The notes under the pieces: generated by a model
Databases searched by the model: none
What the model was told of the DNA's origin: nothing
Seen by the model: the letters and a program-made list of their open reading frames with translations, nothing else
NCBI GenBank assembly: GCA_951406725.2
Contig: OX597823.1
Coordinates: 33,542,001-33,606,000 of the forward strand
Reading direction: 5' to 3'
DNA length: 64,000 nt
DNA from: Octopus vulgaris
Taxonomy: Eukaryota
Shown: one piece after another, positions 15,698-16,363 of the stretch
Position numbering within the stretch: position 1 is the stretch's first letter
Layout of the letters: every line of letters begins with the position of its first letter
Translations under genes and position numbers: made by a program

Positions 15698-16363
15698 ATG
15701 TACATTATTTACATTATATACTGTCCAGCCTTCATCTGTCTTGGGGAAATTTCGAACCTTCGAACCTGGGTTCTCATTCCTAAGGTATTTTTCCGATGTT
15801 GTTGTTGTTGTTATTATTATTATTATTATTATTATTATTATTATTATTGTTGTTGTTGTTGTTGTTGTTGTTGTTGTTGTTGTTATTATTATTATTATTA
15901 TTATTATTATTATTATTATTATTATTATTATTATTATTATTATTCAGGTCACTGCCTGGAATCGAACTCGGAATCTTGGGGTTAGTAGCCCGCGCTATTG
16001 AGCACTACGCCATATGCCCGTGGGCATAGTGGTTAAGAGCGGGGTTAAGAGTGGTTAAGAGCGCGGGCTACTAACCCCAAGATTCCGAGTTCGATTCCAG
16101 GCAGTGACCTGAATAATAATAATAATAATAATAATAATAATAATAATAATAATAATAATAATAATAATAATAATAACATCGAAAAGTACCTTAGGAATGA
16201 GAACCCAGGTTCGAAATTTCCCCAAGACACCTGATGAAGGCTGGATGGTATATCAGCCGAAACGTTGTGTTAACAACAAACAAGATGAGGACAAATATTC
16301 GTCAAATGTAAATAATGTAAATAATGTACATAATTCCTCATCTCTTAAATATAGAACTGTAAC
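15698..16363. mobile_element. Fold-back element: two head-to-head arms of tRNA-like head + (AAT)n + hammerhead
   Basis: Arms are reverse complements around tatgccc-gt-gggcata (16013-16028); A box gtggttaagagc and B box gagttcgattcc on the + arm, a diverged A box and the same B box on the - arm. Confidence 0.8.
16227..16270 (+). ncRNA. Minimal type-I hammerhead ribozyme motif (canonical core)
   Basis: acac CTGATGA a ggctg-gatggtatat-cagcc GAAA cg TT gtgt; palindromic AACGTT; predicted cleavage after 16266. Confidence 0.8.

Follow-up and report, generated by a model that had tools for sequence, protein, structure and literature searches.

We found that the palindrome at positions 15698–16363 of the window (the whole 64,000-nt stretch of Octopus vulgaris DNA under analysis) is a head-to-head pair of end pieces from a Penelope-type element (PLE), a by-product of standard Penelope insertion, and no separate SINE. 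As judged from sequence, each arm, comprising a head, an (AAT)n tract, a hammerhead and a 35-nt tail, is the pLTR of that element, and the centre of the palindrome is the parent's own 5-bp hairpin; both assignments follow from the head-to-ORF order, the parent junctions and the loci picked by their heads. On our best reading, what is new is that a protein-coding PLE with no T4 runs in its coding strand carries a tRNA-derived head where its RNA starts. A tRNA-like head at the likely RNA start, combined with the absence of T4 runs, makes transcription by Pol III likely; if so, this is an uncommon arrangement in a retroelement that codes for protein.

Anatomy of the palindrome

The two inverted arms join at a centre with its loop at 16020–16021 and are 95% complementary over 136 nt, in an alignment that spans from the head into the body (Table 1). 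The first-pass annotation, which had inverted arms meeting at a hairpin centre, is confirmed on this point. Reading outward, each arm contains a 73-nt head, an AAT/AAC tract, a spacer and hammerhead sequence, and the anticodon-like arm (15979–15991 in the left arm, 16065–16077 in the right), B box, AAT tract and spacer proposed for each arm were all found in both. The A box first named, tagtggttaagagc, was read in the wrong register: in the family this box reads TGGCGTAGTGG and lies at head +8. It is imperfect in both window arms, matching 10 of 11 positions in the left and carrying a 7-nt deletion in the right. The right hammerhead is intact and the left has lost its 3′ half, as had been described, but the left has also lost C3-U4 of the core. 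No target-site duplication was recognisable around this copy. A 9-nt unit, AATGTAAAT (window 16305–16334), varies in copy number between copies while the ORF frame is kept, and the shorter insert end falls within this unit.

Table 1. Positions of the palindrome's parts and of further family copies in the window
Feature	Position	Strand	Basis
Left arm, by sequence the pLTR of a Penelope-type element, tail absent, with internal deletions	15698..16019	-	Arm alignment
Dead hammerhead remnant, C3-U4 and 3′ half gone	15716..15740	-	Arm alignment, motif check
Left-arm (AAT)n/(AAC)n tract	15797..15944	-	Repeat finding
Left tRNA-like head, 73 nt; A box 16012–16002 (10/11), B box 15967–15959	15947..16019	-	Alignment; general box consensus
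Centre GCCC-GT-GGGC, by sequence a hairpin that the parent itself carries at head +1; two cDNA ends were likely joined here	16016..16025	.	Exact patterns, parent junctions
Right tRNA-like head; 7-nt A-box deletion and 22-nt duplication; B box 16089–16097	16022..16109	+	Alignment
Right-arm (AAT)21 tract	16112..16176	+	Repeat finding
Parent ORF, first 55 codons from ATG 16197, open through hammerhead and tail	16197..16361	+	Resembles P0003 N-terminus
Minimal type I hammerhead, complete (predicted)	16226..16271	+	Motif and folding; Cervera 2014
PLE tail of ~35 nt, absent from the left arm; two RT start sites likely bound it	16327..16361	+	Tail counts; Frangieh 2024 (available sections)
Second two-armed family copy, centre 20873–20891, one head deleted	20556..21060	.	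Alignment
Third family copy, short fragment	33387..33470	-	Alignment

The parent Penelope-type element

RT-like sequence was found in two loci picked by the element's body and was used to fetch 30 loci, in most of which the head, spacer and hammerhead follow about 600 nt downstream. The parent has the order RT, thumb, GIY-YIG-like domain, stop, about 25 nt, the hairpin TGCCC-AC-GGGCA and then the head, after which come tract, spacer, hammerhead and tail. RVT_1 was matched in all 4 of the fragments searched against Pfam (best E 2.4e-10), and 2923 homologs were returned at E up to 1e-20. The GIY-YIG motif is visible by eye in the parent, and PF01541 occurs in 3 of 120 homologs among the matches listed; Pfam returned no GIY-YIG match for 3 C-terminal parent fragments, and by eye the Neptune-type cysteine linker is absent. 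The longest open parent stretch is 569 aa (L309), and all parent copies seen are broken. The exact parent junction has 268 occurrences, compared with 227 for the exact palindromic centre.

The arm also precedes the ORF. Thirty loci were picked by the ORF start, and 8 of them place the head, tract, spacer, hammerhead and tail directly before the ORF, a partial-tandem arrangement that holds both the ORF start and the hammerhead, as a pLTR does; in locus L446 the copy opens with the head. The parent's reading frame stops shortly upstream of the head and begins anew within the right arm at ATG 16197; from there it resembles the N-terminus of an 847-aa homolog (P0003). An RT-bearing parent that carries the whole arm bears out the link to Penelope that had been drawn from the hammerhead, and it removes the distinct non-autonomous SINE that had been drawn with it: the whole arm, including its head, belongs to the pLTR of a protein-coding parent. 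A SINE chimera would join a head of its own to a partner's 3′ end in a separate lineage, whereas here the head is part of the parent.

We estimate about 56,000 copies genome-wide (Poisson range 32,000–91,000), extrapolated to a 2.8 Gb genome from 16 loci in 80 evenly spaced 10-kb stretches; these stretches yielded 19 clusters, of which 3 that matched only the reference's flank were dropped. Outside CpG columns, arms differ from the commonest letter at about 5% of positions. The same arrangement extends to a related species, in which the hairpin runs on into an inverted head in 60 contigs of run X17 and in 331–423 reads per run across three RNA runs. In two parent copies (L247 and L250, around 1500) the hairpin loop is flipped, and in a third (L252, around 1500) a quasi-palindrome has been perfected to 22 nt, changes typical of template switching. 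Fragments of another RT-like element lie in L052, L054, L064, L069, L074 (just after the AAT tract) and, downstream, L097. Those inside the family's (AAT)n tract look like a microsatellite-targeting LINE, presumably of the Dong/R4 type.

The hammerhead

The right hammerhead has a 5-bp stem I, the core CUGAUGA (16231–16237), an unpaired A16238, a 6-bp stem II closed by G-C, GAAA at 16259–16262 and a palindromic ACGU, with a predicted cut after 16266. It thereby combines the CUGANGA/GAAA/UH core, stems I and II and the palindromic stem III of the minimal type I class, and the earlier description of a minimal, dimer-type hammerhead stands. Among 23 motifs from this and related elements, stem I reaches at least 3 bp in 18, against 11% when the strands are swapped, and the stem positions show several pair types; within the family, N7 is the sole dimorphic hammerhead base (155 T, 56 A). 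The predicted ribozyme itself shows no difference from the minimal PLE hammerheads described in the available text of Cervera and de la Pena 2014 (PMC4209133), sharing their long stem II, short stem I, unpaired base before stem II, G10.1-C11.1 pair and palindromic 15.2-16.2. The same text reports no cleavage of monomers, and it ascribes opposite-strand hammerhead pairs 100–700 bp apart to truncated PLEs.

The proposal that transcripts are trimmed by self-cleavage is contradicted by the ends of the inserts, which lie 50–95 nt downstream of the cut site. It is also opposed by the accessible portion of Frangieh 2024 (PMC11167929), in which cleavage was unneeded for insertion in vitro. No pile of read ends was found at the predicted site in three RNA-seq runs from the related species. 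An unrelated hammerhead-like core (CTGATGA ... GAAAGTC) lies at window 26950–26995 on the plus strand.

The tRNA-like head

The boxes of the head sit at tRNA positions 8 and 53, and T8, a U-turn, an anticodon-like triplet ACT and GTTCGA fall at their tRNA positions when counted on a clean natural copy (L153); the A/B-box assignment follows the general box consensus. When the head was compared with 35 tRNA sequences from the same genome, most scored 33–56, with shuffle means of 10–13. The best scores for a source tRNA, Arg(TCG), Thr(AGT) and Ala(TGC), are near-equal, in a 35-sequence sample from which Ile is absent, and a search for the source tRNA with one exact tRNA-like pattern gave no match. 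ARAGORN called no tRNA in the window or in 13 loci, Rfam found no tRNA or hammerhead over the element at E up to 10 and returned only microsatellite-driven miRNA noise over the whole window (among 150 of 186 rows), and the cloverleaf fold is absent in the head (folding z +0.98). Taken together, the head is tRNA-like in motifs and spacing only, with the A and B boxes of a tRNA-derived SINE. The tRNA-like head first proposed holds for the box motifs and their spacing, but ARAGORN, Rfam and folding see no tRNA in it.

The exact 34-nt head has 1081 matches genome-wide (reversed control 0). Of 29 head-picked loci, 24 run on into the PLE spacer or body; the other 5 have no common alternative tail, and no second family with the same head was found among the 29. 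A loose scan for A and B boxes behind ORFs gave matches in 17 of 22 copies of this family and in 4 of 45 related elements, where the four matches resemble chance. As further observations, seven tRNA calls (six Cys, one Ser(ACT)) cluster within 3 kb at L221:138-2854, and local duplications bear family copies at L279/L280 and L089/L090.

Insertion ends and a model for their joining

Two-armed loci from all selection sets numbered 57 after five duplicates were removed; the tail stands on one arm in 48 of them, on both in 2 and on neither in 7. Both ends could be defined in 54 loci; 30 of these reach a duplication score of at least 8, as against 1.5% of mismatched flank pairs, and the target duplications are mostly 12–13 bp. 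The mobility that had been claimed is borne out. At L035:1150-2120, near-identical flank follows both arms as an inverted duplication of the target flank. Variant letters are shared by the two arms of one locus far more often than between loci (16.5% versus 4.8%), and at dimorphic sites the arms of one locus carry the same letter in 47 of 52 and in 17 of 18 cases. This agreement could reflect one source variant per insertion or gene conversion between arms.

To describe copies irrespective of their centres, we use a centre-blind set of 45 loci (29 body-picked, 16 random), of which 23 are single-armed and 22 two-armed, with an intact centre in only 1. The 5′-most point falls at the head start in 18 loci, in the ORF in 4, at the tract edge in 13 and inside the head or body in 10; thus 22 loci reach the head start and 18 of those stop there. 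In 30 parent-junction loci, break points scatter upstream over several hundred bases. The exact 24-nt centre recurs at 227 loci (reversed control 0), so the recurrence of the centre is upheld as an absolute count, yet among the centre-blind copies an intact centre is rare and half are single-armed.

The element's RNA probably starts at a captured Pol III promoter, with two cDNAs made from one RNA species joining at the hairpin. Pol III would use the tRNA-like head, and the RNA would start at tRNA +1, a start marked by the pile-up of 5′ ends. In the available sections of Frangieh 2024, reverse transcription of a Poseidon element starts at two internal sites 111–118 nt into the ORF, which bound the tail; the RT extends both target strands and needs RNA to +172, but hammerhead cleavage is dispensable. 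By analogy, each cut end would prime a cDNA near the ORF start and copy back to the RNA's 5′ end. Two cDNA ends, both carrying GCCCGTGGGC, would then pair and join head to head; self-pairing of GCCCGTGGGC is worth -11.8 kcal/mol as a duplex and -1.3 kcal/mol as a hairpin. Complete joining would produce a palindrome like that at 15698–16363, while short fold-back and microhomology jumps would produce the lopsided majority of variants. Short palindromes would mostly lead no further, since they reach only to the tail and probably lack the downstream RT-binding stretch; copies that keep 230–600 nt of the ORF start would be better candidates for non-autonomous templates. Two points weigh against these readings: 5′ ends would pile up equally if Pol II initiated within the pLTR or if stalling occurred at the hairpin, and gene conversion from arm to arm could equally yield the agreement within loci.

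T4 depletion and the choice of polymerase

Over a 2.6-kb natural yardstick with coverage of at least 6, the 291 aligned copies share no sense-strand T4 run, where 5.7 are expected (highest T4 share 8%); the same copies share 32 A4, 8 C4 and 14 T3 runs. Along the ORF stretch, the ratio of observed to expected T4 is 0.28 in 30 copies of this family versus 1.52 in 73 related elements, and it is again 1.52 in 42 related elements with matched T content; the 73, one of which is T4-free, come from 80 metagenome-contig elements, 7 of which had fewer than 900 aligned nt. The corresponding ratios for T5 are 0.10 and 1.64, and Phe codons (TTC:TTT) number 320:148 in the family versus 691:848 in the relatives. 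In 23 other long stop-free frames of the same genome, not all of them real genes, the T4 counts are 61 vs 47, and a T4 or longer run lies within 30 nt 3′ of 30 of 38 tRNA genes. When a second PLE family was sought in the same genome as a control, the same family topped the list.

The T4 result has a Poisson p of ~0.003, with the copies counting as one family (n=1), and a synonymous-codon shuffle was significant in one of three copies (p 0.018, 0.53 and 0.74). G4 is scarce as well, at a ratio of 0.24 versus 0.70 in related elements, with no G4 run shared, and a general run bias may also underlie the T4 result. The single T4-free relative, a metagenome-contig PLE (L403:1821-3878), has no sense T4 in 2 kb, with 2.8 expected; neither inspection by eye nor ARAGORN found a tRNA head in it. 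RNA-seq depth is equal on both strands and shows no sharp ends, in three runs from one study of the related species with strandedness unrecorded; passive transcription would give this pattern.

We judge it fairly likely that Pol III uses the head as a promoter. A fuller scenario is advanced tentatively, as a possibility just short of the probable: Pol III would make the full 2.6–3 kb RT-endonuclease RNA, a captured tRNA promoter having replaced Pol II, the coding strand having been purged of terminators, and the RNA starting on a self-complementary 10-mer, with tens of thousands of SINE-sized single or palindromic inserts seeded as a result. Uncapped Pol III RNA needs an additional route to translation, which weighs against this scenario.

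The family could instead be ordinary Penelope debris, a reading that we regard as somewhat unlikely, in which the 3′ UTR picked up a fragment of a tRNA or SINE, transcription is by Pol II from the pLTR and the hairpin alone is a break hotspot. Every structural trait has already been published for PLEs, and in the available text of Schostak 2008 (PMC2377424) the D. virilis Penelope promoter is internal to the pLTR and TATA-less. A passenger fragment, however, does not account for boxes and tRNA spacing that are kept though the cloverleaf is lost, nor for the lack of a second family with the same head among 29 loci. The equal RNA-seq strands without sharp ends and the parallel depletion of G4 fit this reading, but the purging of T4 and T5 across the ORF, unlike in 72 of 73 relatives, does not, and a hairpin of -1.3 kcal/mol poorly explains why many copies start at the head against plain flank.

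Alternatively, Pol III may yield only short or internally deleted template RNAs, with protein made from a separate Pol II RNA, and the true non-autonomous partners would be copies with the order pLTR, ORF start, deletion, pLTR. Common among the 30 ORF-start loci are copies with 230–600 nt of ORF start followed by a jump to the head or body (L439, L440, L448, L449, L452, L455, L456, L457, L458 and L462). This division of labour leaves the absence of T4 from mid-ORF unexplained, and we consider it unlikely; it overlaps the preferred reading of an RNA that starts at a Pol III promoter, and both can hold. The first 230–600 nt of the ORF start are also kept between pLTR pieces in L037, L074 and L259, which are internally deleted; these three and about 10 ORF-start loci are candidate true non-autonomous derivatives.

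Possible copying of the palindrome as a unit

The reading with which the analysis began treats the palindrome as a non-autonomous ribozyme SINE that renews itself: its Pol III promoters would stand back to back, cleavage would trim the transcripts and the PLE RT would copy them. We now consider this reading very unlikely. The 227 exact centres speak for it, as does the orientation of the hairpin loop: intact heads follow the AC loop in 255 cases and the GT loop in 61, while GT occurs in 0 of 100 parent junctions among the matches listed, and most GT-loop loci have only 4–22 nt of the opposite head, a pattern that RNA from either arm would give. Yet 2 of 30 GT-loop loci are parent copies, and a loop can flip without a palindromic template; a GT loop can come from a second cDNA, from loop flips or from other-arm templates, sources that are inseparable here. 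Loci L032 and L041 share a private lopsided centre without shared flanks, so at least some two-armed units are copied whole, but this centre has only 2 copies genome-wide.

Several further results stand against self-renewal. The arm is, by its sequence context, the parent's pLTR, the centre is intact in 1 of 45 centre-blind loci, and palindromic arms carry no private lineage markers (23 versus 49 arms, about 250 columns), the smallest p being 0.005 at a CpG site. Head-to-head hammerheads fall on different transcripts, the inserts end downstream of the cut site, and the arms end at the tail without reaching the RT-binding stretch that the available account maps in a related element. An independent SINE was rejected because its head is part of the parent and it has no private markers. 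Long inverted arms and target duplications might suggest a foldback DNA transposon or MITE with terminal inverted repeats, but this is hardly credible and was rejected on the parent link: the arms are RT-element sequence, the tail makes the ends unequal and the 5′ truncation points vary. In viral contigs, 36 pattern matches gave no confirmed case.

Relation to known elements

The parent resembles the Penelope/Poseidon PLEs (D. virilis Penelope; Anolis PAc, PMC11167929; Adineta Pen2/Pen3, PMC3846280), which in the available descriptions have an RT ORF with a C-terminal GIY-YIG-like domain that starts inside the pLTR, a hammerhead overlapping the ORF start, a 30–40 nt tail at one end, inverted pLTRs, a junction palindrome and target duplications. 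It differs in that its pLTR opens with an A/B-box head of tRNA geometry and (AAT)n, and in that its sense strand lacks T4. The passages covered in the Penelope/Poseidon papers describe TATA/Inr or TATA-less promoters of Pol II type and do not mention a tRNA head. Inverted pLTRs, junction palindromes, tails and duplications appear in the accessible parts of Arkhipova 2013 (PMC3846280) and Craig 2021 (PMC8557442). The first-pass annotation knew of no description of the architecture; minus the tRNA head it is already in print in these two papers and in Cervera 2014, as far as their available text goes, while a pLTR head of tRNA geometry was not found in the papers searched.

A tRNA-type SINE bearing a hammerhead is likewise not new, being in print for the schistosome Sm-alpha. 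As described in the available part of Copeland 2009 (PMC2770079), through which we make the comparison, Sm-alpha/Sj-alpha are tRNA-related SINE-like repeats with a hammerhead; unlike them, the present family carries head and ribozyme in the pLTR of a protein-coding element, head to head. The best functional analogue, as an analogy, is TRIMp3 (Cassandra, Helenus, Ajax), with a small-RNA-derived Pol III promoter in the terminal repeat; these are short non-autonomous LTR elements of 311–1263 bp in the available text of Kojima 2024 (PMC10886601), whereas here a PLE pLTR stands before an ORF of ~820 codons. Membership in TRIMp3 (Helenus, Cassandra) was rejected, since the duplications are 12–13 bp versus 4–5 bp and the ends are of PLE type.

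Non-LTR retrozymes share the type I hammerhead, the derivation from pLTRs and the short unit without protein, according to the accessible text of Cervera 2020 (PMC7229834) and Li 2026 (bioRxiv 10.64898/2026.07.22.740005); in the latter, tRNA or Pol III was not found in the text. Retrozymes, however, are head-to-tail tandems cut to unit length, whereas here the arms are dispersed singly or head to head. A retrozyme was rejected on these grounds: the 45 centre-blind loci are single-armed or head to head, and no head-to-tail tandem of hammerhead units occurs at the window locus.

Our literature search, whose scope left out most subscription papers and Repbase Reports, found no PLE with a tRNA-derived pLTR head and no autonomous element transcribed by Pol III. 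Within the same scope, the available text, including PMC4758252, PMC11702581 and PMC3531059, describes no 5′ ends at a head start and no T4-free PLE sense strand. The 2026 O. vulgaris annotation (PMC13282606) gave no match for hammerhead or palindrome in its available text. Dfam, Repbase or that library may already hold a consensus of the family.

Should the head drive Pol III transcription of the full element, a protein-coding retrotransposon would stand outside Pol II control, which raises the question of how uncapped RNA is translated and offers a route for SINE-like repeats to arise inside their own motor element. The family also makes the formation of inverted PLE insertions a testable question, as the combination of an RNA with a fixed start on a short palindrome, a loop in either orientation, a tail on one side and junctions in their thousands can discriminate fold-back from the joining of two cDNAs. 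Some of the repeats counted as 'unclassified SINE' in such genomes may be PLE ends. Octopuses reportedly carry tRNA-derived SINEs named OK, OR1 and OR2, said to have been described by Ohshima and Okada in 1994, to which the head is likened by description rather than by sequence; one of these, or an unclassified SINE of the 2026 O. vulgaris library, may be this arm.

Much of the window is filled by simple repeats. A transposase fragment, which we take to be Tc1/mariner-like, was recognised by eye at 17000–17500, and two-copy tandems of 184 nt (32365–32739) and 161 nt (60113–60487) probably represent other repeat families.
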